DNA from: a virus
Strand: one strand, 5' to 3'
Virus record (IMG/VR): IMGVR_UViG_3300045988_180644
DNA length: 64,000 bases
Position numbers and translations under genes: made by a program
Shown: in pieces, positions 2,133-29,934 of the stretch
Layout: each line of letters begins with the position of its first letter
Position numbering within the stretch: the first letter of the stretch is position 1
Notes under the pieces: generated by a model
Databases searched by the model: none
Seen by the model: only the letters and a program-made list of their open reading frames with translations
What the model was told of the DNA's origin: nothing

Positions 2133-2201
2133 AACAAAAAAAGACATGCGTGTTGCATGTCTCTTTGCTCGTTTATATTGTACATATATATTTTAGCATA
2201 T
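2133..2201 (-). promoter_or_regulatory. leader cassette a: conserved promoter-like block + hairpin + U-tract before RBS of 1900..2112
   Basis: minus strand TATGCTAAAATATATATGTACAATATAAACGAGCAAAG-AGACATGC/GCATGTCT-TTTTTTT. Confidence 0.6.
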
Positions 2202-2399
2202 TTGCAATAGATGAGGGGAGTATGAATGATGAACTTTTGAAATGGAGCGCTCCAACACACGATTGGAACGCAAATGAAACGCAATATATGCAAAATAGGT
2301 ATAATCTTAGGTGCTCTATACTGTTTTTTATATATTTATATATGAATATGTGTTCATATGTGGTATTAAGCAGACTATACTACAGGTATACGTAAAGCT

Positions 2400-3420
2400 A
2401 TAGTGGACATTAAGTATAGTATATATAAATATTTAGTGTAGTATTACTAAACATTAGTATAAAAAATATATAAAAAAAGTATATCTAAGATAAGATATAC
2501 CATGTTTTACTCTATTTTAGGATATAATTATCCTTAAACCAATATAAACTTTATATAAGAGATAATGGTTTTGTGGTTGTTTTTTTATTTGACCCCTGGA
2601 AGTGGATGCTATACCCCCTACAGATTAGACACTAAAAAAATAGTGCTTCTGTAGGAGGTATATAGTTGACAGACCCGTATAGCCTCAACCAGTGGTGTTA
2701 CCGCGTGAATTAAACACAACATATATTTCCTGCTCATCTGAGCTAACGTCTAACAGTCGATTGGCCTACGTTATAGAAATATATCCCTCTTGAACTCTTA
2801 TCTGTCACCAGATAATGAAAGCATTATGCCCGTTTCTCGTTCATGAAACTTATTGACTGTATCCATCCGTGGGATATTCTTTTGCATCATTAGGAGTTCC
2901 CACTTCTCCTTCAGCCTTAGCACTACGCACACCACAGCGTAGGTAACCGGCGTAGACATTTTTGCTCTCTCGAACAGTCGGCTCTACACACCGCTCAACG
3001 GTTTTCCTTTTTTCGAGTAAAACCTAACAAAAACTCTATTCCTCCTTGTTTTCTTAGAATCATGAAAAGTGGTTTTAAAAACGTATCCATGAGGTTTACC
3101 AATTCACCAGTCGCAGTCTCTTACTCCCCAACATCACTTTTCAGCTTATTTGAGGCTTATGGAAATAGGAAGGGTCGGAAAATAGATATTCAATTGTCCG
3201 TTATCATAGATTGATGCCTCTATCATAAGGTTACTGTTTCTTTTTTGAATAATCTACCCTCCGGCCACATTGCCATTATATATTAGAAACAAAAAATGAC
3301 TTCTCACGAAGCCAAGAAAGTACAAGAAATATAAGTTATAGAATTGTGTACTCTCCTTTCTTCTTCGTCTATATTATATCATATTTTCCTAAATTAGGCA
3401 ACAAATCATTTCGTTTTATC
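2400..3420. ncRNA. ORF-free, GC-elevated ~1 kb block: candidate large structured RNA
   Basis: no ORF >60 aa on either strand across ~1 kb in an otherwise gene-dense island; GC visibly higher than flanks. Confidence 0.3.
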
Positions 3421-3457
3421 CAAAATAAAAAGGGTCCTTAGACCCTCTGCTACTATA

Positions 3458-3715
3458 TTACATAGATTCGTGGAATGTACGAGAAATAACATCATCTTGT
3501 TGTTCTTTTGTTAATTTAACAAAGTTAACAGCATATCCAGAAACACGAATAGTTAATTGAGGATATTTTTCAGGATGTTTTTGAGCATCAATTAATGTAT
3601 CTCTGTTTAAAACATTAACATTTAAATGATGTCCTCCTTTTGTAGCATAAGCATCTAACATTCCAACTAAATTTTCAACTTGTTGTTCACTTGCAAGCAT
3701 ATTAAGCACCTCCAT
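3458..3715 (-). CDS. grcA: autonomous glycyl radical cofactor (GrcA/YfiD-like, PFL C-terminal glycyl-radical domain)
   Basis: [55 protein letters not shown] is near-identical to GrcA/pyruvate formate-lyase C-terminus, including the RVSGY glycyl radical motif; no PFL N-terminal body upstream. Confidence 0.85.
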
Positions 3716-3771
3716 AGATTTTACTATTGTAGTATATCATATACTACAAAGAAAGAAGATTGATATGCTCA

Positions 3772-4443: not shown

Positions 4444-4456
4444 TTGTTTACCTCCT

Positions 4457-4522
4457 AACAAAAAAGACGTGGACTTACCCACATCTCAATTCGTATATTT
4501 ATCTATTACTATTTTATCATAT
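4457..4522 (-). promoter_or_regulatory. leader cassette b (before tmk)
   Basis: TATGATAAAATAGTAATAGATAAATATACGAATTGAG + hairpin ATGTGGG/CCACGTCT + T6. Confidence 0.6.
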
Positions 4523-4585
4523 TTTCTTGCTTTCTTTGTTATAGGAAAAGGAATCATGTATCAATATTGTATTGATGACTATCCA

Positions 4586-4837
4586 TTATAATTCACCTTT
4601 TTTCTTTTTATCAATCAATGTGTCGAACTGTACACATAATAGGTATAAGGTATCTCCCGTCATGTCTTCAAGTTTATAATTGGAAATGCCGGTTTTTTCT
4701 TTGATATGTTGATAATTTTGTCCTCTTTTGTAAGGTATTTTTAAACTATCCATTTCCTTCATTAATTTTTTCGCTTCCTTGATTAATTCCTTTTTGGATG
4801 CTGATGCTATTGTTTCATAATATGTTATATCAATCAC
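4586..4837 (-). CDS. hypothetical protein
   Basis: 83 aa ORF. Confidence 0.55.
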   Translation of the reverse strand: MIDITYYETIASASKKELIKEAKKLMKEMDSLKIPYKRGQNYQHIKEKTGISNYKLEDMTGDTLYLLCVQFDTLIDKKKKGEL

Positions 4838-4838
4838 C

Positions 4839-5354: not shown

Positions 5355-5433
5355 TATTATTCCTCCTTTAAAAAAATATCCGTAATTTCTGAATTTTTAC
5401 GGATATTTTGTTTAACATTTCTATGATATTTGT

Positions 5434-8340: not shown

Positions 8341-8404
8341 ACAAAAAAGGTACGCCATGCGTACCTATCTCTCGTTTATGTTTTACATTATTATTTTACC
8401 ATAA
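8341..8404 (-). promoter_or_regulatory. leader cassette c (before 7868..8320)
   Basis: TATGGTAAAATAATAATGTAAAACATAAACGAGAGATA + GGTACGC/GCGTACC + T6. Confidence 0.6.
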
Positions 8405-9051: not shown

Positions 9052-9107
9052 TAATTTCCTCCAGCATAATATTGCTAAGGATATTATAACATTTGATTTG
9101 GTATTAA

Positions 9108-9143
9108 TAAAAAGACTCTATGATGAGTCTTCTATCGTTTACC
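9108..9143 (-). terminator. variant hairpin/U-tract module at end of 9143..9712, followed by TGTTATAAT extended -10
   Basis: AAACGATAGAAGACTC-ATCATA-GAGTCTTTTT; conventional terminator-then-promoter order here. Confidence 0.5.
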
Positions 9144-10560: not shown

Positions 10561-10941
10561 CTACTCATTTTCATAAGGAACAGGCAATGGCTGCCATGCT
10601 TTAACAGGATTGTTTGCATAGAACTCAGCAAACCCTTTTCCACTAAAATACATAAACTTCTTTGTTGAGAAAAAATATGTTGCAGTTAATATACCACCGT
10701 TTTCCAAAGAAACTAATACCTCACTTGATTCGCCTAATTGAGGTACCCTTTCGCTAACAGGTATCCAATTATTGTCTTCTGGCATCACTGTAAGTATATC
10801 CAATACAGCATCTAAAGCATAATTCCATCCACGTTTGAACGCAATATCTTCTTTAGTATCTCCTTCCAAAATTCTATTTTGATACTTTTCTCTAATTTTC
10901 TCTCTTAACTTGATTCTATCAATCATTTTCATCCTCCACAA
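10561..10941 (-). CDS. hypothetical protein
   Basis: 126 aa ORF. Confidence 0.55.
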   Translation of the reverse strand: MWRMKMIDRIKLREKIREKYQNRILEGDTKEDIAFKRGWNYALDAVLDILTVMPEDNNWIPVSERVPQLGESSEVLVSLENGGILTATYFFSTKKFMYFSGKGFAEFYANNPVKAWQPLPVPYENE

Positions 10942-11560
10942 ATTCCTTCATAATTTTAAACTGGGCATCAATCATATCAATTAATGCTTTTCTGAGTTTT
11001 CCAAATTTACCATCAGGTTTTGTAATCATTTCTATAATGTTTTTAATAAGGATAAGTTTCTCATCATTGGAAACTTCTTCATTTTTAATTTGTTCAAACA
11101 AATCTTTCAATGACTTTGTTCCCCATGCGTAACTATAAGCTGAATTTCCACTCAATAAAGAATATTGTTGATTAATAAATTCGGTAATCCAATCATTGCA
11201 CCCTGAATGACTTGAAATAAAGTTATCATATAACCATGAATCATCATTGATATAAAAATAACAGCTAAGATTTCCATTCATATGACTCATCGAGAAATAG
11301 ATATTATCTGTGAGATAGTATTCCTCACCTAAATAGATATTTTCATCTGCTATTTTTTGATATAAATCTAATTGTTTTTCTAGATGTTTAATTTCTTCTT
11401 TTAACTGATATTCATTGACAGATATGTTACTTCTTCTCAAGTCTTCTAAACCTTCTTTATACAAAAACTGCTCATACTCTCTAACTTCTTCAATTTTCTT
11501 ATCCAAAACTTCAATCTCTTTTTCTAGAATTTGGATAATTTTTCTTTTATCTTCGCTCAT
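10919..11560 (-). CDS. hypothetical coiled-coil protein
   Basis: 213 aa ORF, K/E-rich N-terminus; preceded by a ~51 aa overlapping leader ORF (11553..11706). Confidence 0.6.
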   Translation of the reverse strand: MSEDKRKIIQILEKEIEVLDKKIEEVREYEQFLYKEGLEDLRRSNISVNEYQLKEEIKHLEKQLDLYQKIADENIYLGEEYYLTDNIYFSMSHMNGNLSCYFYINDDSWLYDNFISSHSGCNDWITEFINQQYSLLSGNSAYSYAWGTKSLKDLFEQIKNEEVSNDEKLILIKNIIEMITKPDGKFGKLRKALIDMIDAQFKIMKEFVEDEND

Positions 11561-11727
11561 TTTCGTTTTCCTCCTTCAAAAATCTCATACAATCCTCATA
11601 TTCATCTTTTATAAAATTTTGTAATTCTTTGTATTTCTCTTTTAATTCCTTGATTGATTTACATTTAGCAAATTCTTCATAAATCCATATTTTCGTCTCC
11701 TCATACATTTTTTTACTCCTTTCTACG

Positions 11728-11790
11728 AAAAAAAGAGAGACACATTTGTCTCTCTCATCGTTTAATATTTACATATTCATTATAGCATAA
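11728..11790 (-). promoter_or_regulatory. leader cassette d (before small ORF + 10919..11560)
   Basis: TTATGCTATAATGAATATGTAAATATTAAACGATGAG + AGAGACA/TGTCTCT + T7; duplicated with cassette e. Confidence 0.6.
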
Positions 11791-11802
11791 GACAGGGTAC
11801 TG

Positions 11803-12399
11803 TTAGTCAAAAGGTATAACTAAACACTGCACTTTTCCACCTATTGTTCTTTGACCTTCTATATGCAAAGCGTTTTCTGTCATGATGGCATATTCTACTG
11901 ACTCAATGCATCTCTTTTGGGCTTCCTTTAACGATACATTTATTTCTGTATTTCTAAATTGCATAAGCCCATTGACAGCTATAAGTTCATCTCCAGAACA
12001 AAAAATATCGACATCTCCTTTCCTTTTAACGGTTATTGCTGTTGTCTTTGAATGAATAATATCTATAACATATAAAGTATCTTTATAGACAATAATCAAA
12101 CGAATATCCTGTACATATCTATCACAAAATCTTTTAATATAAGATATATATCTGTTGATTTGTTCTTCAATACTATCAAAATTCATGAAATATTCTTTAT
12201 AAGTTTCATTGATATCAATCGCTTTCCCTGTATACTCATCAATAAATCCATTCAATCCAGTGCTTGCAATAACAACATCACCAATCTGATGAATTTTTTT
12301 ATAATTTGAATCTTTAAGTGTCCTGTCTCCATAACAGCTATATGAATCAGAAGCAATGACAATTCCTTCTTTTGTCATATAAGTAATCATGTATGACAT
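11803..12399 (-). CDS. HslV/proteasome-beta-like Ntn hydrolase paralog B (Ser at the nucleophile position)
   Basis: MSYMITYMTKEGIVIASDSYSCYGDRTLKDSNYKKIHQIGDVVIASTG matches HslV N-terminal pattern (x.VVIAxD...K.N.KK...D.VIA..G); RBS AAAGGAG. Confidence 0.55.
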   Translation of the reverse strand: MSYMITYMTKEGIVIASDSYSCYGDRTLKDSNYKKIHQIGDVVIASTGLNGFIDEYTGKAIDINETYKEYFMNFDSIEEQINRYISYIKRFCDRYVQDIRLIIVYKDTLYVIDIIHSKTTAITVKRKGDVDIFCSGDELIAVNGLMQFRNTEINVSLKEAQKRCIESVEYAIMTENALHIEGQRTIGGKVQCLVIPFD

Positions 12400-12529
12400 A
12401 ACATTTCTCCTTTCCTGTTTTTTTTTCTATGTATAACATTAAACAATTCCTCCATGAATAAACTACTCTTATTGTAACACACCAATCATTTCTATTTCAC
12501 TTTATCATGAAGGAATTCATTCTTTAGCA

Positions 12530-13351
12530 TTAATTCCAGTTGACTCCAATATGGCCGTCTGGATGGATAATAACATTTGAATATCCGTCCTCATAATCGT
12601 TATGAATTTGCTGATACATATCTCCTAAAGTGATACGAGCATGTTTCCCATTGTAATTGAATGTGGTATAAACAAAGAAATCTCCTACACGGAATGTATG
12701 CAAGTCAATTTCGTCATTTTCCTGCAATTCATCCAAGATATTGATGTCATAGTCATATTTTTCAAGACTGCTTAAAAACCGAAAAGAAAACGACTGTGCG
12801 TTTGTATTATCCATGTAATCTTTTAAGTGCTTTAAGTTCATATCTTTATCTTGGACAATGGTTTGAACGGTACAATCTGGGAAATCTTCAGGATTTGGCT
12901 TTACGTAATCATTCACTGAAAGGTTGATATGACCCAAACCATTTAATTCTTTGCTGTATCCTGACGTATTAATACTTAAGAAGATATTATCGCTGTATTC
13001 TTTATAGATATCAGATAATTCCTTTACGTATTCAGGATATAATCCTGGCTCTCCACCTGTAATTGTCAATCTCGCTGCAGGATGTTCACGTAATACTTTT
13101 CTAAGAGCTTCCTTTTGTTTTTCAATATCGATTTGCCCTTTCATAGGATTCTTTCTTTCAATACAGAACGGACAATGATAAGGACATTCCTGCGTCATGA
13201 TAATCTGAACATTAATACGATAATACAATGGACGACCTAAAGAAGTCCTTTCATGACGTGTTTCTAATCTATACTTTAAATCTTCTTTCATCTGATTTCT
13301 AATCCACTCATAATTATCAATATGTGGGATAAAGTTCATTTTTCTAGTCAT
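12530..13351 (-). CDS. radical SAM enzyme (family unresolved; activase-like)
   Basis: CPYHCPFC (CxxxCxxC) cluster, LTITGGEP and INTSG motifs; start set to ATG (MTRKMNF) with AGGAG RBS. Confidence 0.75.
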   Translation of the reverse strand: MTRKMNFIPHIDNYEWIRNQMKEDLKYRLETRHERTSLGRPLYYRINVQIIMTQECPYHCPFCIERKNPMKGQIDIEKQKEALRKVLREHPAARLTITGGEPGLYPEYVKELSDIYKEYSDNIFLSINTSGYSKELNGLGHINLSVNDYVKPNPEDFPDCTVQTIVQDKDMNLKHLKDYMDNTNAQSFSFRFLSSLEKYDYDINILDELQENDEIDLHTFRVGDFFVYTTFNYNGKHARITLGDMYQQIHNDYEDGYSNVIIHPDGHIGVNWN

Positions 13352-13383
13352 AATATTCACTCCTAATAAAAAAGCTATAACGA

Positions 13384-13428
13384 TTTAAAAATTTTTCTCG
13401 TTATAGCATGCTCTCTTTTATGTTTCCT
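13384..13428 (-). terminator. hairpin + U-tract between 430-aa gene and radical SAM gene
   Basis: TGCTATAACGA-loop-TCGTTATAGC followed by TTTTTT then AGGAG RBS. Confidence 0.5.
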
Positions 13429-14720
13429 TACTTAGATTCGTCATAGCCAACAACAAAATGATTAGTCTTTGTTACTGTTGTGTATCCTTCTTTAATATCT
13501 AATGTAAACATCACTTTACATGGCAATCCAGCAGTTGCATGTACACCAAATTTATTTGCATTGAGCCAGCCTTTTCCTTTAAAAGGAAATGATGTTTCTT
13601 CAATGAATTTTCTTGGTGTCGTATACCTTCTTCTAGAGAAATTAAAATCACAATATGAAGTTTTTAGCTGGTCTTTGGCGAGGTTTTCTAAGAATTCATC
13701 AAGATTTCCTGATTTGTCAATGATATCCCTTATTTTCTTAGTGATTTTTACATAATGATAGTATTGGATAGGATTGTTGTCAGTATATTCTAAAGCATGT
13801 TGCCAGATTCTATTATTTTCATAAGACACAGCCAGTCTTCCTAAATATAAAAATTCTGCACCATTTTTTTCTTTGTAGATAGCCCCTACATTTAAATCCT
13901 CCTGCTTCAAATATCTTGTTTTCTTTTTGATATCCTGAATATTTAAATCTTTATCTAGTAAAATGTTAGCTTTTTTGACTCCCATGATTAAAGCAATAGC
14001 TAAACGTGCTCTATGTTTATTAACAATTTCAGACATATCATATTCATCTCTGAATTCTACCGTTTCATCCGGTACAATGCATAATGCTATTCTATACCCA
14101 CATTCATAGTCTGTTAATCCGTTTTCAAAAATATATATTCTTCTATTTGCCTGAAATGTTCCGTCCTTTTTCAGTGGAATCAAATCAAAAATATCAGGTA
14201 ACTGCTCCTTATTCATAATCATATGAGCTATATCAATCATTTGCTTTATCTTTTGATAATATTTTTCACCCGTTAAACTTGACTCTGGAATCTTGCCTTT
14301 ACCATATTTAGCCAAATTTTTTTTAGCTTCATTTAAATAATAGTCTAGATTATATTCATCAAGAAATATTGATGCATTTGGACCATAAATTTCTTTTACA
14401 GTTTTAGGCGGATTTAAACAAATCTGTAACAGTTGCTTTTCATCCAAAAACTCATGTTTTAATTTACCAGTTGATGCTTCAAAAGATGAACCTTCAAATT
14501 CTGCTCTAATTTTAAATATCTCTAAAATCACATCTTGTCCATTTCTTGTTTTGACATATACATATGAGCGAGTGCGTGAGCAATTGTGCTTATTGAAAAA
14601 ATTAAGAATATCGCTTTCTGTTGTTGTTTGTGTAACTTCATAATAAATCCCGTATTTCTTTGCCTGTGTTTCAGTTATAGGACTAATATCTTCTTTTTTT
14701 AAAGCGAAAAGTTTTGCCAT
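13428..14720 (-). CDS. hypothetical protein, long paralog (430 aa)
   Basis: shares LPDIFDLIPLKKDGTFQANRRIYIFENG and EHRARLAIALI...IQDIKKKTRYLKQEDL blocks with 14880..15872. Confidence 0.65.
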   Translation of the reverse strand: MAKLFALKKEDISPITETQAKKYGIYYEVTQTTTESDILNFFNKHNCSRTRSYVYVKTRNGQDVILEIFKIRAEFEGSSFEASTGKLKHEFLDEKQLLQICLNPPKTVKEIYGPNASIFLDEYNLDYYLNEAKKNLAKYGKGKIPESSLTGEKYYQKIKQMIDIAHMIMNKEQLPDIFDLIPLKKDGTFQANRRIYIFENGLTDYECGYRIALCIVPDETVEFRDEYDMSEIVNKHRARLAIALIMGVKKANILLDKDLNIQDIKKKTRYLKQEDLNVGAIYKEKNGAEFLYLGRLAVSYENNRIWQHALEYTDNNPIQYYHYVKITKKIRDIIDKSGNLDEFLENLAKDQLKTSYCDFNFSRRRYTTPRKFIEETSFPFKGKGWLNANKFGVHATAGLPCKVMFTLDIKEGYTTVTKTNHFVVGYDESK

Positions 14721-14796
14721 TTTGTTATCCTCCTTATTGAATTTATTTTGTTTTGAAATATAGTTTATTTTCTTCTGTTTTAATCTCCTTTCTACG

Positions 14797-14859
14797 AAAA
14801 AAAAGAGAGACGAATTTGCCTCTCATATCGTTTATATTTACATATTTATTATAGCATAG
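14797..14859 (-). promoter_or_regulatory. leader cassette e (before 13428..14720)
   Basis: near-duplicate of cassette d incl. CGTAGAAAGGAG; stem weakened (GAGAG/CTCTC). Confidence 0.55.
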
Positions 14860-14879
14860 AAATTCATAAATAAAACACA

Positions 14880-15872
14880 TTATTCCGTGTCGTCATATTC
14901 AACATAAACATCATATTGTGATACAACTCCTGTATATTCATCTTTTAAATCCATTGAAAACATCGGAAATTCCGTTTGTCCTGGTGTTGCATTTGGTCCA
15001 TCGATATTGACCTTTACCCATCCTTTAGGACATGCATTTTCAACTTCATCAACAAATTTTCTTAGACTAGTTCGACTGCGTGATGAAAACCCTAACTCAT
15101 CTGTGTTATCTGTTTTTAATTTCACATGAGCCCATTTTTCTAGAAATTCATCAAGTGAATCACAACCATCAAGTATATCCCTCACTTTTTTAGTTACTCT
15201 TAGATATTCACAACCATCTATATGTTTGCATTTAGTTGTTAGGATAGTACGTGGAACATCTCTTAGAACAATACTAATGCCTCCTAAAAACAGGTACTCC
15301 GTTCCAGATTTTTCTTTGTAGATTCTCCCTGGCTTTAAGTCTGATTGCTTGATATACGTAGACCTCGTTTTGATATCCTGTATTTTAAGGCTTCTATTAA
15401 GAAGTGGATAGAGTTTTCTTACACCTGAAACAATGGTTATGGCTAAACGGGCACGATGTTCATCAACTTTTTCATTCATATCCATAAATTCATACCATGG
15501 ATTAATACCATAAGGAACAATAACTAATGCGATTCTCCTTCCTGTTATATATTCTCCAGAACTATCTGTCTCACAGTATGAAATTCCATTATCATAAATA
15601 TAAATACGTCTAGCCTTTTGAAATGTACCGTCTTTTTTCAATGGAATCAAATCAAAAAGATTAGGTACTTTTTCCTGATTCATAATCATGTTTGCTATTT
15701 TTACTAATTCGTAAATTTTACGATAATAATCTTCACCAGTTATATTGGTATCGGGTAATTTACTTTTTCCACAGACGTCTTTTATTTTTTTAGCATGTTC
15801 TAAATAATGATTGAAATTCTCTTCATCATAAAATATTGATAAACCTGCACCATAGATTTCCTTTTTTGCCAT
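14880..15872 (-). CDS. hypothetical protein, short paralog (330 aa) of 13428..14720
   Basis: aligns with residues ~100-430 of neighbour; VPNLFDLIPLKKDGTFQKARRIYIYDNG. Confidence 0.65.
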   Translation of the reverse strand: MAKKEIYGAGLSIFYDEENFNHYLEHAKKIKDVCGKSKLPDTNITGEDYYRKIYELVKIANMIMNQEKVPNLFDLIPLKKDGTFQKARRIYIYDNGISYCETDSSGEYITGRRIALVIVPYGINPWYEFMDMNEKVDEHRARLAITIVSGVRKLYPLLNRSLKIQDIKTRSTYIKQSDLKPGRIYKEKSGTEYLFLGGISIVLRDVPRTILTTKCKHIDGCEYLRVTKKVRDILDGCDSLDEFLEKWAHVKLKTDNTDELGFSSRSRTSLRKFVDEVENACPKGWVKVNIDGPNATPGQTEFPMFSMDLKDEYTGVVSQYDVYVEYDDTE

Positions 15873-15890
15873 AAGATTTATTTCCTCCTA

Positions 15891-16499
15891 CTAAAATCCA
15901 TATAAAATCACATCTTCATTTTCCCAATCCGTATGGTTATATAAATTAATAATCTGAAGAATTGTATATTCCGTAGATATGTTGATATTGTATGGAATTT
16001 CTAATTTATCTTTGTTTGTTCGTTTTGAAAATGACTTAAAAGCATCCATATTAAGACTATCATCTTGTTTCCATAAATTTGCTTTTCGATGGAAATATTC
16101 CTGTGCAAATATAGGCCCACATTCATCTTCAAAATCTTTTAACATGTCAGTATAATATTTATACATGCTTTTATAGATTGCATCGAGATACAACAGAATC
16201 ATTTCCTTAGTCAGTTTTACAATTCTTTCACCATCAATATCCCTTTCACCTTCATAAGGAATATTGACTAAATGACTCTGTTCTTTAGAAAGATATGATT
16301 TCCCCTGTTTACGTATTGTTTCAGCGTCATCATCACTTCCTAAAGGCATCACTTCTTGAAATCCTAAATGCTTGACAACATCGTATTGTGTAAGTTCATC
16401 TGGATTCTCTTTAAACACATCAATGAGTTCTTTTAGCTTTGCATCAATGTCTTGAGAGCATAGCTTTTTTCTTTTACAAATATACAAACGATAGCTCAA
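15891..16499 (-). CDS. hypothetical protein
   Basis: TTG start (LSYRLYICKRKK) 8 nt after GGAGG; tracker start 16541 overlaps leader cassette. Confidence 0.55.
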   Translation of the reverse strand: MSYRLYICKRKKLCSQDIDAKLKELIDVFKENPDELTQYDVVKHLGFQEVMPLGSDDDAETIRKQGKSYLSKEQSHLVNIPYEGERDIDGERIVKLTKEMILLYLDAIYKSMYKYYTDMLKDFEDECGPIFAQEYFHRKANLWKQDDSLNMDAFKSFSKRTNKDKLEIPYNINISTEYTILQIINLYNHTDWENEDVILYGF

Positions 16500-16518: not shown

Positions 16519-16578
16519 CAAAAAAGACATGCATAAAGCACGTCTCGTCTCGTTTAATATTTACATTTCTATTATACC
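16519..16578 (-). promoter_or_regulatory. leader cassette f (before 15891..16499)
   Basis: TGGTATAATAGAAATGTAAATATTAAACGAGACGAG + ACGTGC/GCATGTCT + T6. Confidence 0.6.
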
Positions 16579-16596
16579 ACATTATACTCTGCAATC

Positions 16597-19355: not shown

Positions 19356-19420
19356 ACAAAAAAGACATGCCAAAGCACGTCTCAATTTCGTTTATAATTA
19401 CATATTTATTTTATCATATA
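19356..19420 (-). promoter_or_regulatory. leader cassette g (before 19123..19338; sits in a divergent intergenic region)
   Basis: TATATGATAAAATAAATATGTAATTATAAACGAAATTGAG + ACGTGC/GCATGTCT + T6; no upstream minus-strand gene to terminate. Confidence 0.65.
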
Positions 19421-19557
19421 TGTGTTTTGTTAAGAAAAAAGTATCCTGATGATGCAGACAGGATACTCCAAAAATATCTCACCAATGAGACAATCTTAGT
19501 TTATTCTATATTACATAAAATTTCAACTCATTCTTATATATAAATTTAAAAAGTTAT

Positions 19558-19586
19558 TTGACAATATGTTGTATACGACATATAAT
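19558..19586 (+). promoter_or_regulatory. consensus sigma-70 promoter of higBA
   Basis: TTGACA-17 nt-TATAAT, ~24 nt upstream of RBS. Confidence 0.7.
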
Positions 19587-19609
19587 ATAATTGAAAGATG
19601 AGGAGTATT

Positions 19610-19978
19610 ATGAATTTTGAAATAGAATTTTATGAAACAGAGAATGGACGTGAGCCAGCAAAAGAATTTATTTTATCATTAGAGCCTAAAATGCAAGCTA
19701 AAATGTTACATGAAATAGATTTATTGAAAGAAAATGGGATTTTTTTACGAGAACCACATACAAAAATGATTGAAAAAGGAATATATGAAATTCGAGCTAA
19801 ACAAGGAAGTAATATAAGTAGAGTTTTATACTTCTTCACTATAGGTCAAAGAATCATTCTTACAAATGGATTTATAAAGAAAACACAAAAAACACCTAAA
19901 AGATATATTAACTATGCAAAACAATGTAAGAAAGATTATGAAGCTAGGCATACTATGAAAAAGGAGGAGATTTTATGA
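19610..19978 (+). CDS. higB: type II toxin, HigB/RelE-ParE (Gp49-like) family
   Basis: MNFEIEFYETENGREPAKEFILSL...IYEIRAK...RVLYFF fits Gp49/HigB-type toxin; GAGGAG RBS; 4-nt ATGA overlap with antitoxin. Confidence 0.7.
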   Translation: MNFEIEFYETENGREPAKEFILSLEPKMQAKMLHEIDLLKENGIFLREPHTKMIEKGIYEIRAKQGSNISRVLYFFTIGQRIILTNGFIKKTQKTPKRYINYAKQCKKDYEARHTMKKEEIL

Positions 19979-20253
19979 GCAGTTATGATGATTTTAGAAA
20001 TAAGTTATTAGAAAATCCTGAAGTTAAAGCTGAGTATGAAGCAATGCAACCTGAATATGATATTATTCAAGCACTTATTGATGCAAGAAAACAACAGGGC
20101 TTAACACAAAAAGATTTATCTCATATTACAGGAATTACACAGGCTGATATTAGTAGAATTGAAAATGGAACACGAAATCCAAGTTTAGCTATGTTGAAAA
20201 GATTAGCTGATGGTATGGGTATGAGATTAAAATTAGAGTTTGTTAAAAAATAA
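19975..20253 (+). CDS. higA: HTH (XRE-family) antitoxin, HigA-like
   Basis: GLTQKDLSHITGITQADISRIENG helix-turn-helix; 92 aa. Confidence 0.75.
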   Translation: MSSYDDFRNKLLENPEVKAEYEAMQPEYDIIQALIDARKQQGLTQKDLSHITGITQADISRIENGTRNPSLAMLKRLADGMGMRLKLEFVKK

Positions 20254-21547: not shown

Positions 21548-21610
21548 CAAAAAAGACGTGCTATGCACGTCTTCGTTCGTTTATTTATCTACGTTAATAT
21601 TATATCATAG
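21548..21610 (-). promoter_or_regulatory. leader cassette h (before ClpC-like gene)
   Basis: CTATGATATAAT (perfect extended -10) ...AAACGAACGA + AGACGTGC/GCACGTCT + T6. Confidence 0.65.
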
Positions 21611-22068: not shown

Positions 22069-22082
22069 AAGTTCACCTCCAA

Positions 22083-22150
22083 AATAAAAACTGTAATGTT
22101 TCCATTACAGTCCTTCTAAGAAAAGTATATCATAAATCGCTTATATTTTG
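22083..22150 (-). promoter_or_regulatory. same architecture, different sequence: TGATATACT -10, hairpin CTGTAATG/CATTACAG, U-tract, RBS of 21616..22068
   Basis: read on minus strand from 22150 down to 22083. Confidence 0.45.
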
Positions 22151-23001: not shown

Positions 23002-23076
23002 CTCCTTTCCTCCGATTCAAAAGTTCTTGTATCTTTATTATTTTATCACACATATAAAAAAAGAGGCATTTTGCCC

Positions 23077-24402
23077 CTAATATTTCGTAATATTCTTTTC
23101 CAAGTCAATGATAAACACTGTGTTGCTGTCAATAGCCTGCATAACTTTCTTCATCTGAGAAGTCGGAATTGCTACACATCCTCCTGTATAATGGATACTA
23201 TTAGCACAATGCAGGAAAAAAGCAAAGCCTTTTCCTTTTACATTAGATGTATTATAGCTGAAGGCTGCAGCATACTTATATTGAGTAGGATAATCAATTA
23301 AATGCTCATCATTTTTTTTACTGCAAGAATGTTCTGTTACATCCTCATCTACAAATTGATTGTATAATGTTTCTCCACACCAGTAATCATTGTTATCAAT
23401 TCTATGATACGGAAGCTGAGTACCAGGATTTGATGATATTCCCATTAATTTTGTAAAAGTATATTGTCCAATAGGCGTTCTCGTACTGTTTTCACTTCCT
23501 GTTCCTACTCCAGCCTTACCAAAATCAGCTGTTGTCTCTAGAACTTCTTTCCATTTTCCATTCACTTTCTGATAATAAGTAAATGTTCCTTGTCTTGATG
23601 AACTTGATGGAGCTGATGCAATCATAATTTTTGAATAGCTTTTAGCAACATCTAATTTAGAAACCCATAAATCATTTGACGATGCGCTGGATGAACCAGA
23701 TGTTCCAGTTGATGTTCCGGTATTCTTATTTGAAGTGCTTGAAGAATTGCTACTTGCTGTTTTGTTACTCGTAGAACTCCCCTTCTGTGATGAGCTTGAG
23801 TTGTTTGTCTTGTTTGATGATTGACTTGTAGTGCTTCCCTTTGAAGAACTCTTAGAAGTAGTATTCTTTGATGCCGTTATAGCTTTTTCTTTGACTGTCA
23901 AATCAATTTCCTTTTGAGCCTTGTTCTGATATTCATCAGTAGCTGTGACCTTCACCTTATAATTTCCTGATTTTGTATAGTCAATTTGAGCATCTTCTAC
24001 TGTAATGGTTACATCAGATAAATCTGTTGCTGTAAATTTCTTTTTATCAATCTTTTCACCATTATCAACAGTGACCTTTGTTATTCCATCGGTAAAGGTT
24101 GGAGCCTTTGTGTCTTCAACTTTTATTGTCACTTCCTGATTCGTATTTCCGTGACTAATCTTTAATGTATACTCCCCAACGGCAGGGTATTCTTTACCTT
24201 CTTCATTTTCTGGAATCCCTGTCATTGTTGAATTTTTCATATATTCATCACTGTTTTCTAGATACGTTTTTAAATCCGAAGAAACGATTTCTCCATATTC
24301 TACTGTTAATTCTTTATTCTTTAATTTCATTTGTTCCTGCTGGCATCCACTAATCATTAATGACACTAACAGTACCAAAAAAACTTGTAAACATTTTCTC
24401 AT
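23077..24402 (-). CDS. lipoprotein with Ig-like domains, S/T-rich linker and C-terminal L,D-transpeptidase (YkuD-like) domain
   Basis: lipobox LMISGC; LHCANSIHYTGGCVAIP matches LD-transpeptidase catalytic motif; start moved to ATG (MRKCLQV) with GGAGG RBS. Confidence 0.65.
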   Translation of the reverse strand: MRKCLQVFLVLLVSLMISGCQQEQMKLKNKELTVEYGEIVSSDLKTYLENSDEYMKNSTMTGIPENEEGKEYPAVGEYTLKISHGNTNQEVTIKVEDTKAPTFTDGITKVTVDNGEKIDKKKFTATDLSDVTITVEDAQIDYTKSGNYKVKVTATDEYQNKAQKEIDLTVKEKAITASKNTTSKSSSKGSTTSQSSNKTNNSSSSQKGSSTSNKTASSNSSSTSNKNTGTSTGTSGSSSASSNDLWVSKLDVAKSYSKIMIASAPSSSSRQGTFTYYQKVNGKWKEVLETTADFGKAGVGTGSENSTRTPIGQYTFTKLMGISSNPGTQLPYHRIDNNDYWCGETLYNQFVDEDVTEHSCSKKNDEHLIDYPTQYKYAAAFSYNTSNVKGKGFAFFLHCANSIHYTGGCVAIPTSQMKKVMQAIDSNTVFIIDLEKNITKY

Positions 24403-24417: not shown

Positions 24418-24486
24418 AACAAAAAAAAGATGTGTAGCTTTGTACACATCTCCTTCGTATATATTTACATGATTATTTTATCATAA
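24418..24486 (-). promoter_or_regulatory. leader cassette i (before LD-transpeptidase lipoprotein)
   Basis: TATGATAAAATAATCATGTAAATATATACGAAGGAG + ATGTGTACA/TGTACACATCT + T8. Confidence 0.6.
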
Positions 24487-26929: not shown

Positions 26930-29176
26930 TTAGATATCATATTGCTCCAGCAGTTCAGTCAGCATGGTATTTCTCTTTCTTTCCTTGTTGTCCAATGCAT
27001 GTTGCATCATATTCTTTTGACCAACAATAAAAAGTTCGTTTTTGTTTCTTGTCATTCCTGTATAGACAAGACGTTTCTTTATCATGAATCGGTGTAATCC
27101 ATCCATAAGCATAATAGAGCACTTGTATTCAGACCCTTGCGTTTTATGAATGGTCATAGCATAAGCCAAGCGCAATTCATCAAACTCTTCTCTTAGGTAT
27201 GTATGTTCCATTCCATCATAATCCACAACGATTCTATCTTCATTGCTGTTCTTTGTATCTGAGTAAATACAATCAATCACATTTCCGACCATACCATTGA
27301 ACAGATTAAATTCCGGATGGTTCTTCAACTGAAGAACTCTATCCCCTACCCTAATGATTTTCTTGAATCCAACTTTCATTTCAGGCTTGTCTTCATCATA
27401 GGGATTTAATATAGCCTGTATTTCTACGTTCATGACATCACAGCCGATATCTCCCTTATTCTGTGGCTCCAACAAGCAGACATTTTCAACACCCCACTGT
27501 GTCACTTTCTTGAGATAAAGCTGTAACACTTCATCTTTAGTTGCCTGAATATCACTTTCTGGTGTTTCAATGAATGCAAAATCTTGAGCATCTGTTAAAT
27601 CTGGTACTCTTTCCTGAAAGTTGAAATCAAGAGCTCTAGGCAAAGTTGTACTACCATCAACAGCTCGATAGATTTTTTCAAGGATTGTTTTTGGAATATA
27701 ATCTACATCAATCAAATCCTCCAAGACTTGTCCTGGGTCAACAGATGGCAACTGGTCCTTATCACCTGTCAAGATGACAACAGTATCTGAAGAGATGGCT
27801 TTCATCAGTCGTTCAAACAAAACAATATCAACCATTGAAAACTCGTCGACAATCAGCAAATCAACCTGCAAAGGATTATGTTCATTATATTTCCATCCCG
27901 TTTCAGGATTATATCCAAGTAATCTATGGATTGTGCTTGCTTCCATTCCAGTGGCTTCTGACATTCTTGTAGCAGCCTTTCCTGCTAGCGCACATAACTT
28001 AATGTTGACTCGTTTCTTGCTGTTTTGGAATATATAGCAGATACAATCAATCAATGTTGTCTTTCCACTTCCTGGTGGACCAGAAATAATGGAAAACTGA
28101 TTAATAGATGAACGCTTGATTCCTTCTCTTTGCTTGTCAGCCAACTGAAAACCTTTCATTGCCTCATATTGTGCAATCATTTCATCTACTTTGCTCTCTG
28201 CAACTATTCTGTTTTTGCGTACTGCTGTAGCAACCATTTGAGCAACATTGTTTTCTGCTTTGTAGATATATGGCAGGTAAATGACAATATCTGTTTTCTT
28301 TAGTCTCTTATATATCTTTCTAGAATCCAGCATTTTAATGATTGCCTCTCTGATAAGCGATTCATCTACATTTAACCCTCTCTCTGCCTGAACTATCAAT
28401 TCTTCTAGAATCATGTAACAGTCGCCAGTATATAGTTTTGCTTTTAGCAATGATATGATATATGCCTCTATTCTTCTTAAATCCTCTTTTGAATAGTTAT
28501 AATATCTTAAACCAATCCCATCAACGGTTTCAAAAGAAAATCCATCAACATTAATTAATTGATATGGATTATCATCTATGATACTTGAGGCATTTGTTCC
28601 CCAGAGTTTTAAGAGTTTGAGTGCTGAGTTTAATGAAACACCAAAACGAACAAATTTATAATAAAGAGAATCTATCGCCTGGTATTTTTTCTGTTTTTCA
28701 AGAGCTTTGTCAATAGTTTTCTGTCCAATCCCACTTACATCCTTCATATCCACTCTAAACTCCTCAATGTTTTGTTTGAAGGTGTTGATGGCATTTAGTG
28801 GGTTGCTATCATAATACTCAATCAGTCTTTCTGCTCTTTTAGGGCCGAATAGAAATGCCAGCATTGACGTTGCTCCTACGATGTCATCATCAGCTCTGAT
28901 AGCATAAGTGAAATGAAATTCATCTTTCCCGTTCTTTCCTTTCTTCCATTCTCCAATAAATTCCAGATAATCACCTACAGAATGATGATTTGTTGTACCG
29001 ACAGCTTTGAACTTCTTGTTTGTCAATGGGTCTCTAACGTTTAAAACACACCATAATAGTTCATCTGCTTCTAGAAATCCTTTAGGTACTATCACATAAT
29101 CAATCCATCCTCTGATTCTTTCTAAATTTTCCTGACTCTCCATCTTCTTTTTTATAATTCTTTCTTTGAGTCCCAT
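26930..29176 (-). CDS. recD2: RecD2-like ATP-dependent DNA helicase
   Basis: GPPGSGKTT Walker A, LIVDEFSMVD, ILTGDKDQLPSV, TIHKTQGSEY motifs; 748 aa. Confidence 0.8.
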   Translation of the reverse strand: MGLKERIIKKKMESQENLERIRGWIDYVIVPKGFLEADELLWCVLNVRDPLTNKKFKAVGTTNHHSVGDYLEFIGEWKKGKNGKDEFHFTYAIRADDDIVGATSMLAFLFGPKRAERLIEYYDSNPLNAINTFKQNIEEFRVDMKDVSGIGQKTIDKALEKQKKYQAIDSLYYKFVRFGVSLNSALKLLKLWGTNASSIIDDNPYQLINVDGFSFETVDGIGLRYYNYSKEDLRRIEAYIISLLKAKLYTGDCYMILEELIVQAERGLNVDESLIREAIIKMLDSRKIYKRLKKTDIVIYLPYIYKAENNVAQMVATAVRKNRIVAESKVDEMIAQYEAMKGFQLADKQREGIKRSSINQFSIISGPPGSGKTTLIDCICYIFQNSKKRVNIKLCALAGKAATRMSEATGMEASTIHRLLGYNPETGWKYNEHNPLQVDLLIVDEFSMVDIVLFERLMKAISSDTVVILTGDKDQLPSVDPGQVLEDLIDVDYIPKTILEKIYRAVDGSTTLPRALDFNFQERVPDLTDAQDFAFIETPESDIQATKDEVLQLYLKKVTQWGVENVCLLEPQNKGDIGCDVMNVEIQAILNPYDEDKPEMKVGFKKIIRVGDRVLQLKNHPEFNLFNGMVGNVIDCIYSDTKNSNEDRIVVDYDGMEHTYLREEFDELRLAYAMTIHKTQGSEYKCSIMLMDGLHRFMIKKRLVYTGMTRNKNELFIVGQKNMMQHALDNKERKRNTMLTELLEQYDI

Positions 29177-29216
29177 TATAATCCTCCTTTTAAAGAAAGA
29201 GGCCTAATAGCCTCTT

Positions 29217-29849
29217 CTAATGATTCTTGATATATGCTAGGTAAATGAATTCCAACATGGCTACGAGTCTTTCTGTTCTGACAGGAACTGATACTCTAGC
29301 TGTTTTACCATCTCTTGTTTCTGAAACACCAATCATCCAGTTTCCTTCACGATTTCCTGGAGTGACTGTAAATGTTCTTTGGAATGCCTTCCCTTCAAAT
29401 TCGGGTTGTTTAAATTCACTAAAGACTGCCGAAGCAAATTTCTTCTTTCCATCTCTCATGGCTTCTCTTTCTGTTGCTTCTAAATCAAAGATATAGCCTG
29501 ACGTAAAGGCCCATCTTAAATATAGTAAATTCTTAAAGTCCAAATAGTAAGGGATGAACGCCTTTTGTTTATTGGATTCGTCCAATTCGACGAAGTTCAT
29601 ATGAACCTTACAGTCCATACCAGCATCATCATCAATCAAATTAAATCCATCCTGTAAAACTTCTAAGAATACATCTCCGCCTGTTTTTCTTTGAGCATAT
29701 ACTTTATCAATTTTCTTAGCATATTCTTTCTTCACTTCTTTTTCTTTGACTTCAGTTTTAACTTCTGAATTCATAGTTTTAGGAGTATATGTTTTCATTT
29801 CTACTCCCTTGTTTTCTTTATTTGCTTTTGCTTTGTCTTTTAATCCCAT
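29217..29849 (-). CDS. hypothetical protein
   Basis: 210 aa ORF, AAAGGAGG RBS after leader cassette j. Confidence 0.6.
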   Translation of the reverse strand: MGLKDKAKANKENKGVEMKTYTPKTMNSEVKTEVKEKEVKKEYAKKIDKVYAQRKTGGDVFLEVLQDGFNLIDDDAGMDCKVHMNFVELDESNKQKAFIPYYLDFKNLLYLRWAFTSGYIFDLEATEREAMRDGKKKFASAVFSEFKQPEFEGKAFQRTFTVTPGNREGNWMIGVSETRDGKTARVSVPVRTERLVAMLEFIYLAYIKNH

Positions 29850-29865
29850 AGTTTTCCTCCTTTAA

Positions 29866-29934
29866 ACAAAAAAGACACACCTTATGTGCGTCTTTTCTTT
29901 CGTATATGATTTACATATATATTTTATCATATAT
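29866..29934 (-). promoter_or_regulatory. leader cassette j (before 29217..29849)
   Basis: TATATGATAAAATATATATGTAAATCATATACGAAAGAAAAG + ACGCAC/GTGTGTCT + T6. Confidence 0.6.

Follow-up and report, generated by a model that had tools for sequence, protein, structure and literature searches.

The window, by which we mean the whole analysed stretch of 64,000 nucleotides, is part of a large, uncultured gut mobile element that carries the plasmid-type maintenance genes ParA, ParB and RepA_N. Within the window at least 14 operons are opened by the same compact cassette, a promoter followed by a tagged terminator. Eleven of these cassettes lie on the minus strand and three on the plus strand, and the orientation is always that of the gene served. 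With coordinates measured from the TRTG of the promoter to the end of the T-run, the cassettes are:

2136-2200, minus strand: cassette a, with extended -10 element, ATGTACAAT start region, AAACGA tag, 10-bp hairpin and T7; ATG at 2112
4460-4521, minus strand: cassette b, tag ATACGA; ATG at 4443; precedes a thymidylate-kinase-like gene, then a GrcA-like gene
8343-8403, minus strand: cassette c, the upstream gene stopping 9 nt before TRTG; ATG at 8320
11728-11789, minus strand: cassette d, the upstream gene stopping 13 nt before TRTG; ATG at 11708
14797-14858, minus strand: cassette e, the sole copy with a distant start codon (ATG at 14720, 76 nt off)
16520-16581, minus strand: cassette f; TTG start at 16499
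19358-19418, minus strand: cassette g, without adjacent upstream minus-strand gene; separate hairpin terminator at 19435-19468
21549-21609, minus strand: cassette h, before a Clp-N/AAA gene (21528-20290); the L370/L304 ortholog has another stem
24421-24485, minus strand: cassette i, immediately 3' of a RecJ-like gene
29868-29931, minus strand: cassette j, between ParB and the 210-aa/RecD2/RecJ operon; the L364-L367 ortholog has another stem
34710-34776, plus strand: cassette k, before the RNase_T exonuclease gene that opens the plus-strand arm; the 2.4 kb upstream hold no co-directional gene
36228-36292, plus strand: cassette n, with -10 TATACT, before a SpoVG-domain gene (36313-36939)
44678-44742, plus strand: cassette l, downstream of RepA_N; four relatives keep it
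63799-63860, minus strand: cassette m, degenerate, tag TCCGA, before a lone minus-strand gene (63622-63131)

The full pattern matches the window 12 times, compared with 0.32 +/- 0.56 matches (maximum 3) in 200 dinucleotide shuffles. Searched with a profile built on the 32-nt block, the window gives exactly 14 matches (E <= 0.0013), and 80 unrelated viral loci (1.4 Mb) give none at E <= 0.1; together these controls exclude chance as the origin of the cassettes. The ten minus-strand copies described in the initial annotation are all present where it had placed them; its figure of at least 10 operons holds, but is too low, as a search of the remaining sequence adds cassettes k, n, l and m, and longer contigs of the same element contain further cassettes past both window ends. 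No cassette is found at the maintenance genes ParA and RepA or at the tRNA-array promoters.

The first module reads as an extended -10 promoter without -35 element (TRTGnTAnAAT), of the host primary-sigma type and textbook Gram-positive in appearance. Among the 26 copies compared, TG, TA and the final T are invariant, which bears out the extended -10 element proposed earlier for the block, and a TGT follows 4 nt past the hexamer in at least 90%; a conserved -35 element was looked for in the cassettes and none was found. Transcription is predicted to start at the G of ATGTAAAT, which is the G of the near-invariant TGT and the 7th base past the hexamer.

The second module begins about 11 nt past the predicted start and consists of AWACGA, hereafter the tag, a purine-rich spacer of 0-6 nt, a GAGAY stem and U5-8. 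The predicted transcript contains both the hairpin and the U-run, with the stem-loop 16-19 nt past the predicted start, and the leader folds into one hairpin in all 14 copies (-8.8 to -16.7 kcal/mol, z-scores -2.1 to -5.9); a terminator scan flags the cassette leaders as well. In 30 of 30 copies a stem of 7-15 bp is followed by at least five T, so that the 6-9 bp and the U-tract of 6-8 originally given have to be corrected, the latter to T-runs of 5-8. The GAGA, formerly taken as a flank, is instead the 5' base of the stem, paired with UCUY at the start of the U-run. The two base pairs adjoining the U-run are fixed (G-C, A-U) and the upper part of the stem is free, with four to six pair types per position and pairing retained across the 30 copies, and the covariation claimed for the stem is thus strong. 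A strong SD sequence and a start codon follow 16-23 nt past the U-run (76 nt in cassette e), which places the hairpin just beyond the ribosome footprint.

The two modules are separable. The ATGTAA start motif is present without any terminator in the distant relative L368, and the tag recurs at terminators that are not preceded by a cassette promoter:

36951-36997, plus strand: promoter-less tagged terminator, AAATAAACGA-TAGA-hairpin-T6, between SpoVG-like and RuvC-like genes, with SD and start immediately after
39494-39533, plus strand: promoter-less tagged terminator where two genes converge, ATATAAACGA-AAAG-hairpin-T7
9104-9141, minus strand: promoter-less tagged terminator, TAAACGA-TA-hairpin-T5, then an ordinary promoter at about 9091
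23055-23091, minus strand: tagged terminator, ATTACGA ... hairpin-T7, then an ordinary promoter at about 23048

At least 20 terminators carry their own tag, promoter-less ones included. Intergenic terminators have it in 13 of 28 cases versus a background of 5.2% (p = 4e-10); for promoter-less terminators only, under a strict filter and in the window alone, the count is 2 of 14, which is not significant (p = 0.16). However, the AACGA at 36951-36997 is kept in 5 of 5 lineages and so is the tag at 39494-39533, there with four different stems, and the motif has thus persisted at two promoter-less sites across five lineages despite changing stems. It is because of this orthologous conservation, and not of enrichment in the window, that we regard the tag as a selected feature at promoter-less terminators. 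The ACGA/GAGA sequence is part of the terminator and not of the promoter, and its pattern of conservation indicates selection on the tag as a terminator feature. The ACGA...GAGA conservation noted in the initial annotation is therefore not specific to promoter or leader, the same tag being present and conserved where there is no promoter.

In 10 of the 14 copies the upstream ORF stops 6-64 nt before TRTG without any other clear terminator, so the hairpin would also perform the ordinary terminator job, and this dual use is compatible with a purely structural, constitutive design. The gap upstream of cassette j holds a parS-like palindrome and then TTCTTTTTT, a possible terminator. Cassettes a, g, k and m lack a neighbouring gene of their own direction upstream and still retain the U-run, and the T-run of cassette k is retained in five lineages (47-72% RepA identity); the structure is therefore a leader element and not merely another gene's terminator. 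The earlier statement that the hairpin is a leader element rather than the terminator of the preceding gene is therefore supported by these four copies, but its exclusive form does not agree with the dual use in the ten. For cassette g, an adjacent minus-strand gene is absent, as had been said, but a separate hairpin terminator (19435-19468) and an inserted plus-strand two-gene module lie upstream.

Relatives at only 47-72% RepA identity keep cassettes at orthologous sites, and the promoter-first order is kept there though the intergenic DNA is otherwise unalignable across lineages. Cassette k is found in L118, L121, L122 and L123 with four different stems, and L122 and L123 have a separate terminator after RepA and still keep cassette l. 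Since ordinary boundaries with the terminator before the promoter are also present in this genome, the promoter-first order is a choice. Two other leaders have the same architecture:

22081-22134, minus strand: promoter, hairpin, then SD, with an unrelated leader (TATGATATACT, 11 nt, 10-bp hairpin, T5) and no block
56010-56106, plus strand: promoter, 42-nt perfect hairpin (-24.4 kcal/mol), T6, SD/ATG; the leader differs from that of the cassettes

Each copy can be understood as a two-module operon-boundary cassette with a double role, which would follow from the terminator sitting downstream of the start site. As an insulator, the terminator would halt polymerases coming from the upstream operon; as an attenuator or "valve", it would truncate most transcripts of its own promoter to leader RNAs of 44-50 nt. 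Downstream genes would be expressed through read-through alone, and such mRNAs would bear the hairpin near their 5' end. A trans-acting factor, encoded by the host or by the element, may set read-through at each tagged terminator via the tag, and antitermination would then be local and not processive. We favour this combination of insulator and attenuator with read-through set via the tag, tentatively and with not quite even confidence. That polymerases would have to read through is suggested by the 36951-36997 terminator, behind which SD and start follow directly, with no promoter, in 5 of 5 lineages, and by the DnaE-like gene of the relatives, which is located behind a cassette of -15 kcal/mol. 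Weakened U-runs in some diverged orthologs (TTTTCTTATTT, TTTTGG) are compatible with simple leaky attenuation, for which no factor would be needed, and the leader of 16-19 nt is too short for an alternative antiterminator structure. The conditional override of termination that had initially been deduced is not supported, as read-through that is partial and constitutive, or RNA processing, would be just as good a fit.

RNA processing is the most serious alternative, though we consider it a good deal less probable. Here two mRNAs would share one hairpin, which protects the 3' end of the upstream one and stabilises the downstream one at its 5' end; read-through would be constitutive and partial, and no antiterminator would take part. 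The tag would be an endonuclease determinant of the RNase Y type, and the cut, falling between G and A of ACG|A and 1-6 nt short of the stem, would trim the 16-19-nt 5' tail and split read-through transcripts, in the manner of cggR-gapA and saePQRS. RNase Y cleaves a few nt before a stem; a G immediately 5' of the cleavage site sets the position, and the 3 nt on the other side alter efficiency more than 20-fold (PMC11321564). When cleavage occurs 6 nt ahead of a duplex, the fragment downstream is stabilised (PMC5449607). Tag, spacer and stem are arranged in accordance with these rules, the tag is also present at intra-operon and 3'-end terminators, and the hairpin just outside the ribosome footprint is in line with such a role. 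Like the known sites in cggR-gapA / gapR-gapA and saePQRS, the cassettes have a G before the putative cut and, beyond a short spacer, a stem that contains G-C pairs, and the downstream mRNA would be left with a stabilising 5' hairpin. However, the known sites do not terminate transcription and have no U-run, whereas the U-run is invariant here, which points to selection on termination itself and not just on a stem. RNase Y in B. subtilis has a "surprisingly weak consensus" and its sequence requirements are loose, and the near-invariant AWACGA is more specific than that would require. Moreover, other promoters of this genome, as at 22081-22134, put the hairpin near the predicted start, so that no cut would be needed.

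It is improbable that the hairpins are upstream genes' terminators only and that the promoter-first order has no function, either because the promoter-like block is not a real start or because the cassette was spread by recombination like the T4 PeSLs. The 10 of 14 copies that lack another clear upstream terminator would agree with this, as would the variable modules of relatives, which adjoin cassettes or terminators; but the sole mapped insertion breakpoint (window 19513-20253 versus L370) falls outside any cassette, the U-run is kept where no upstream gene exists, the genome uses terminator-then-promoter boundaries elsewhere, and the order is conserved amid unalignable DNA.

In lambda (PR'-tR' with Q, and N/nut) and in HK022 (put), promoter-proximal terminators are overridden by phage antiterminators, which act processively from one or two loading sites per genome. 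The cassettes resemble these systems in that a strong promoter is directly followed by an intrinsic terminator, so that a short RNA would be the default and downstream genes would need read-through, and the initial annotation had thought, among other things, of Q/N-type processive antitermination. In a promoter-anchored form of this (Q, or N/put), the promoter or leader would be where a factor joins the polymerase, perhaps while a -10-like TGTAAATAT early in the transcribed region holds it in a sigma-dependent pause, and the polymerase could then pass the leader terminator as well as those that follow. TGT+AAATAT indeed resembles a second extended -10 element at -1 to +8, and by the inferred geometry the C-G of ACGA occupies +11 to +14 in the predicted transcript, a possible pause. 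Yet the -10-like element is inconsistent between copies, L368 has the start motif without a terminator, and processivity would call for a single loading site in each transcription unit, not for a tag at each of at least 20 terminators; the tag conserved at promoter-less ones argues against a Q-type anchoring to the promoter. The co-encoded Q/N-type antiterminator that had been postulated was not detected among about 40 scanned proteins, nor were NusG/LoaP-, BglG- or ANTAR-like genes, most proteins here being without annotation, and no put-like two-hairpin RNA was found. We consider this mechanism very unlikely.

Similarly doubtful is a DNA operator, in which a global repressor of the element binds ATGTAAAT..AWACGA over the start site and silences the promoters in a carrier state, comparable to C1 of P1, whose asymmetric operators are numerous and dispersed, the hairpins being ordinary terminators. 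The maintenance genes recall a phage-plasmid, the block is absent from them, and it is asymmetric and spans -2 to +16, where repressors classically bind; however, its halves occur apart (the tag at promoter-less terminators, the start motif without tag in L368), their spacing varies by up to 3 nt, and why a terminator must be downstream of the promoter is left without an account. Least credible of all is that the 44-50-nt leader RNAs are the product, an abundant sRNA family titrating or decoying a host RNA-binding protein or defence system, since, although strong promoters and terminators would yield many short RNAs sharing 5' GUAAAU..AWACGA, the cassettes are locked 16-23 nt before SD/start, which an sRNA gene would not need, the tag also lies where no short RNA would arise, and the leader matches no Rfam family.

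The cassette is related to known attenuators and to the PeSLs of T4-type phages, which are promoter-early stem-loop cassettes (Arbiol et al., 2010, PMC2839356; Comeau et al., 2014, PMC4122927). Both are dispersed, intergenic cassettes of roughly 60-100 bp, numerous and situated between the small genes that a large mobile genome carries, and both combine a strong host-sigma promoter, a stem-loop terminator or attenuator and the SD/start of the next gene, with transcriptional insulation. The PeSL stem-loop, however, is placed between -35 and -10, over a box, in the AT-rich region further upstream or immediately ahead of the start site, and is therefore absent from the PeSL's own transcript, whereas here it follows 16-19 nt past the predicted start. 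PeSLs also have -35 boxes, which the cassettes lack, and G/C-tract stems; in the cassettes the stems are variable and come with a U-run and the AWACGA tag. A role in recombination is putative for the cassettes, the one mapped breakpoint not being inside one. Terminator-local antitermination by RNA-binding proteins is known from BglG/SacY/LicT at RAT sites and from ANTAR proteins, whose targets form structures of their own, either a stem-loop or two hexaloop hairpins, which compete with the terminator. As would hold for the tag, the recognition sequence lies directly 5' of or overlaps the terminator stem and is repeated per terminator, but the tag is a short single-stranded motif without alternative fold, and CAT/PRD and ANTAR domains were not found in the scanned proteins. 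Returning to the combined insulator and attenuator, gene expression at the cassettes probably depends on how often polymerase passes its own stop signal, and we infer that a factor regulates this passage.

Each cassette is composed of a promoter, whose upstream edge reads TRTG, and a tagged terminator, i.e., the tag AWACGA, a stem beginning with GAGAY and a run of five to eight U, behind which a Shine-Dalgarno (SD) sequence and a start codon follow. The ten copies reported in the initial annotation are all present in the window; a simple pattern picked up two more, both on the plus strand (34710 and 44678), and a scan for hairpins with a T-run revealed further copies at 36228 (plus strand) and 63860 (minus strand, degenerate). 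R1, a sequence-only profile of the block with 32 positions, has exactly 14 matches in the window (E-values of 2e-7 to 1e-3; next-best E-value 0.06) and none in a control set of 80 unrelated viral loci (1.4 Mb) with Clp-like genes, and the full pattern occurs 12 times compared to 0.32 +/- 0.56 times in 200 dinucleotide shuffles. The proposal to search for the block outside the window proved fruitful, as longer contigs of the same element carry additional copies past both ends, four in the adjacent 10 kb on the left and two in those on the right. A cassette always has the orientation of the gene behind it. The promoters of ParA, RepA and the tRNAs are free of cassettes, and a split into “maintenance” and “gated” genes would fit this correlation. 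Rfam 15 contains no family matching at the cassettes; the tRNAs alone match, at gathering scores and E ≤ 0.05. One relative has a tandem pair of promoter blocks (L304:995-1065), of which the first carries a tag but no hairpin and the second forms a complete cassette, which suggests a local duplication of the block. A recurrent human-gut promoter sharing the start ATGTAAAT, seen at locus L311 among others, was set aside, as it belongs to an unrelated organism and has no Rfam gene behind it. ATGTAAAT also resembles the 3' end of some clostridial type I-B CRISPR repeats; reading it as such a repeat was dropped, as what remains of the “spacer” is conserved, a transcript from the predicted start would lack the first two bases and the host is uncertain.

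The layout of the cassettes is based on an alignment of 26 distinct copies. The promoter reads T(A/G)TGnTAnAAT, with T3, G4, T6, A7 and T11 invariant in the 26 copies, and the TG one base upstream of the TAnnnT hexamer represents the TRTG -16 motif of extended -10 promoters; a conserved -35 element was not found upstream of the blocks. Four free bases follow the hexamer, and then a near-invariant A-T-G-T-A, whose G, the seventh base after the hexamer, is the predicted start and is preceded by a pyrimidine (T, the sixth base). A purine 6-8 nt after the hexamer is the standard start position. An AT-rich stretch of slightly variable length leads to the tag A-x-A-C-G-A, which is invariant and has its C at +11 to +14 of the predicted transcript. 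By these features the first module is a predicted primary-sigma, Gram-positive extended -10 promoter of the TRTGnTATAAT type. In a more distant relative (L368) this promoter, with its start motif ATGTAA, carries neither tag nor hairpin. Three further readings were discarded on inspection as inconsistent between copies, namely TATAAACGA as a sigma -10-like element, a mini-hairpin of GUA and UAC at the 5' end, and an extended pairing of AAAC with the G behind the U-run.

The second module, the tagged RNA unit GUAAAUAUAAACGA-hairpin, continues behind ACGA with 0-6 mostly purine bases, a hairpin of 7-15 bp and 5-8 T. A stable hairpin with T5-8 is present in 30/30 copies (-8.8 to -16.7 kcal/mol), and the terminator prediction that had been recommended, performed as a consensus scan, flags the cassette hairpins, which have the features of intrinsic terminators as far as can be predicted. 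The GAGA formerly described as a flank actually belongs to the stem, as the lower part of its 5' arm; the pair adjoining the U-run is G-C in 29/30 copies and the next pair A-U in 27/30. The stem covariation noted earlier is seen at the upper positions, each of which has four to six pair types with the pairing kept. As the variable stems are misaligned when whole cassettes are aligned with MAFFT, these pairs were counted from individual folds and not with a covariation tool, and R1 was built from sequence only. The predicted leaders measure 44-50 nt, with the terminator hairpin as the sole fold and 16-19 unpaired nt at the 5' end. Among 13 copies, all but cassette m, 12 have a strong SD and a start codon 16-23 nt past the U-run. 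Behind cassette l a conserved double SD-like stretch, GGAGGGAAAAGGAAAACGTGGAAAGGAGAA, precedes a 67-aa gene (44742-44790 and the orthologs in L118, L121, L122, and L123); this stretch may represent a very short leader ORF or serve ribosomes as a standby site.

The conservation of ACGA had been regarded as a feature of promoter and leader. This does not hold, as the tag is also present, and conserved, directly 5' of terminators without a promoter, which in the window are the following:

36951-36997, plus strand, promoter-less tagged terminator
39494-39533, plus strand, promoter-less tagged terminator
9104-9141, minus strand, promoter-less tagged terminator
23055-23091, minus strand, promoter-less tagged terminator
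about 20286, minus strand, promoter-less tagged terminator 3' of the Clp-like gene

Several further ones are found in the relatives. Together with the untagged promoter of L368 this makes promoter and tagged terminator separable modules, which is the chief revision of the initial annotation. At the two plus-strand sites of the list AACGA is kept in 5/5 lineages with varying stems, one site having GGGATGC/GCATCTC, GAGGTGC/GCATCTC and GAGGGTCATC/GACTCTC and the other GGTCCC, GAGCCC, GACCCC and GAGACC. Altogether, 13 of the 28 intergenic terminators in the window are tagged, against a background of 5.2% (p = 4e-10). With the strict filter of this count just 2 of 14 promoter-less terminators in the window are tagged (p = 0.16), and therefore the case for the promoter-less tag rests on conservation and not on window statistics. 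The order promoter, hairpin and SD also occurs with unrelated leaders, at 22081-22134 (minus strand), 56010-56106 (plus strand), 3383 (minus strand) and L370:1205 in a close relative. Two promoters, 56010-56106 (plus strand) and 3285-3383 (minus strand), have the start TATGATAnAATATAGAC in common, followed by a different hairpin and T-run each and then by a gene; at 56054-56100 the hairpin forms a perfect stem-loop of 42 nt (-24.4 kcal/mol). Hardly any ORFs are present in the region 2200-3300.

At cassettes b, c, d, e, f, h, i, j, l, and n a co-directional upstream ORF ends 6-64 nt before TRTG. As there is no other clear terminator for this ORF at these ten cassettes, the hairpin would also have to end the upstream operon, although in the gap of cassette j a parS-like palindrome followed by TTCTTTTTT could act as a terminator. 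Cassettes a, g, k, and m have no adjacent upstream gene. Among them, cassette k heads the whole plus-strand arm behind 2.4 kb of non-coding DNA, and it has a hairpin and a 5-8-T run in 5/5 lineages with four different stems. In the relatives L122 and L123 a separate terminator has been gained by the RepA gene, and cassette l is still present behind it. Hence, the initial annotation was right in describing the hairpin as a leader element, as cassettes a, g, k, and m show, and wrong in denying that it terminates preceding genes, as it would at ten copies. Taking both groups of cassettes together, the predicted terminator would therefore be an insulator as well as a part of the leader of its own promoter. 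Since ordinary junctions with the terminator first and then the promoter coexist in the same genome (9139 then 9091; 23089 then 23048; 3447 then 3381), lack of space does not impose the promoter-first order of the cassettes, which is apparently under selection. Polymerases would have to read through tagged terminators, because the terminator 36951-36997 adjoins the SD and start codon of a RuvC-like gene with no promoter between them in every lineage, and in the relatives of the L364 group a cassette of -15 kcal/mol stands in front of a DnaE-like gene. The gene content beside the cassettes differs between relatives; one breakpoint was examined and is located outside any cassette. A plus-strand two-gene module of the window (19513-20253) is absent from L370 (L370:16471-16510), which has a type I restriction-modification system beside its Clp-like gene and a 5-kb insert splitting that gene (L370:1867-9904, 10894-16072).

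We regard the cassette as a putative composite of a promoter and an attenuator. The hairpin would stop incoming polymerases, and polymerases starting at the cassette's own promoter would mostly stop there too, giving leader RNAs of ~45 nt, so that expression would be the product of promoter strength and read-through. As the CG-containing tag and the stem base are strictly conserved in an AT-rich genome, the sequences point to a trans-acting factor that recognizes the tag at each terminator, and in our preferred reading this factor would control read-through locally. After initiation, sigma is exchanged for NusA and NusG. At terminators only ~45 nt behind the start this exchange may still be pending, and polymerase might partly ignore them for that reason.

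The main rival explanation takes the tag as a determinant for an RNase Y-type endonuclease. The published rules, i.e., a G before the cut, a short spacer that tunes the efficiency, a downstream stem and a stabilized downstream fragment (PMC11321564, PMC5449607), agree with a putative cut between ACG and A, 1-6 nt from a base-paired, G-C-containing stem, and the hairpin would become a true 5'-terminal stabilizer. However, the sequence need of such an enzyme is far below the conservation seen at the tag, and the invariant U-run implies that termination itself matters. A promoter-anchored processive antitermination of the Q type, suggested initially as a Q/N-type system, is unlikely, because the tag travels with terminators and not with promoters and no Q/N/NusG-like protein was detected among the proteins scanned. 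In this search for a co-encoded antiterminator no Q or antiterminator family was recognized with Pfam or PHROGs among about 40 proteins, a part of the proteome. The signal of lambda Q (QBE and a -10-like pause element) is promoter-bound, whereas here the tag is also found at promoter-less terminators. A single DNA operator of the P1 C1 type, an asymmetric site of fixed length over each promoter, would fit the block position of -2 to +16, but is unlikely because the block halves occur separately and with a spacing that varies by up to 3 nt.

The composite of promoter and attenuator also differs from described elements. BglG/SacY (RAT) and ANTAR proteins act on a structured target competing with the terminator stem, whereas here the terminator hairpin is the sole fold, and no CAT/PRD or ANTAR-domain protein was found among the scanned proteins. 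The closest described elements are the T4-type PeSLs, which are likewise dispersed cassettes of promoter, stem-loop and SD (definition in PMC2839356). However, their stem-loop is located within or upstream of the promoter, and because it precedes the transcription start they insulate without attenuating their own transcript. In PeSLs, indels of the flanked genes arise by recombination between cassettes. Here the hairpin is located 16-19 nt past the predicted start, and by the defining stem-loop position the cassette as predicted is not a PeSL. Functionally, it resembles the promoter-proximal terminators of antitermination systems and leader attenuators, but without their recognized proteins and RNA structures. 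From its sequence we class it as a cassette type specific to an uncharacterized, widespread family of human-gut elements.

The window has a G+C content of ~31% and consists of two gene arms, the minus strand running leftwards from 32.3 kb and the plus strand rightwards from 34.8 kb, with the sign of the GC skew flipping near 33-34 kb. Between the arms, 2.4 kb of non-coding DNA contain parS-like palindromes as well as iteron-like repeats and are flanked by genes for ParA, ParB, RecD2-like, RecJ-like, Clp-N/AAA, RNase_T, SpoVG-domain, RuvC-like, and RepA_N proteins. A 16-bp palindrome, AGGTTCATATGAACCT, has six copies in 32300-34700 and a seventh directly 3' of the ParB gene (29968-29989), and 32300-34700 further contains about five iteron-like repeats, GATAGnTTnTTAATAGGATT, some in one orientation and some in the other; this region at the GC-skew switch is probably a centromere (parS) and origin. 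Inside the RepA_N gene there is a 31-bp tandem repeat (43951-44071; 3.9 copies, 70% matches), which may be an internal iteron or origin, as is known from other RepA_N replicons. The window includes a further feature:

45821-51833, tRNA array of 25 genes

At 47801-47873 lies a tRNA with the anticodon UUA, which would read the UAA stop codon, and an Rfam tRNA match of 135 nt without an ARAGORN call (46071-46205) may be an intron-containing tRNA. The sole near match of the window to any catalogued phage is a GrcA-like small glycyl-radical gene (3458-3715, minus strand) with ~84% DNA identity to genes of Salmonella jumbo phages; near-identity searches with 24 kb against phage and plasmid collections returned just a fragment of this gene and tRNAs, and pattern and protein scans of IMG/VR returned no relatives. 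Identical proteins are encoded on many contigs from human-gut metagenomes, the longest of 167 kb (ENA ERZ24773328 NODE_100, or ERZ21563861 k87_5737097), and diverged relatives, with RepA identities of 38-94% and Clp-like identities of about 50%, are found on contigs of up to 256 kb. When genome and metagenome contigs were searched with an AT-rich 17-base pattern, L304 was the only true relative among the matches listed, the rest being single chance matches. The nearest cellular homologs of the Clp-like protein come from Erysipelotrichaceae, which suggests a host in this family. About 84 kb of the element showed no structural genes, and it may be a phage-plasmid or a megaplasmid. A Clp-like homolog with 44% identity is located in a cultured Erysipelotrichaceae isolate, Thomasclavelia cocleata (GCA_002803405.1), amid the phage-like genes Bro-N, ANT, ORF6N, and RadC on the 358-kb contig PHNQ01000039.1 (142831-164099). 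This locus, L375, has no cassettes; it may point to the hosts used by the wider family.

A first, weak candidate for the factor is a SpoVG-domain protein (gene 36313-36939; Pfam E = 2e-9), whose gene lies between cassette n and a tagged terminator. It is conserved in all relatives examined, and SpoVG proteins bind RNA as well as DNA (PMC4959528, PMC11086051). A second candidate is an Alba-like 95-aa protein (gene 42013-42300; E = 0.0012, below the family cut-off), and a conserved 210-aa gene (29217-29849) is a third. Sequence searches against the PDB were uninformative, and the assignment to either protein is weak. More far-reaching, and in our view rather improbable, is a genome-wide “valve” regulon, in which one element-encoded RNA-binding protein would locally open all tagged terminators of a gut Bacillota phage-plasmid or megaplasmid of 167 kb or more, which would set it apart from the processive Q/N/put/ConAn systems and from antitermination of the RAT/ANTAR type. 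For this role the SpoVG-domain protein would be the obvious candidate on account of the position of its gene. The tag of the regulon would be the short single-stranded AWACGA adjoining a fixed GA/UC stem base, and its intrinsic terminators would cap at least 20 strong promoters without a -35 element as well as several junctions inside operons.

If the tagged leader terminators gate expression, most operons of the element would be controlled after initiation via one short RNA motif. Promoter, tag and terminator would then form a simple, portable switch and a new example of how large mobile elements of gut Firmicutes stay quiet or turn on. The cassettes offer a concrete, testable case for two questions, namely whether terminators ~45 nt past the start behave like distal ones and whether the sequence just 5' of a terminator hairpin can be a specific recognition signal. 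Even as a constitutive attenuator and insulator, the motif would be a precise marker for the annotation of transcription units in this element family.
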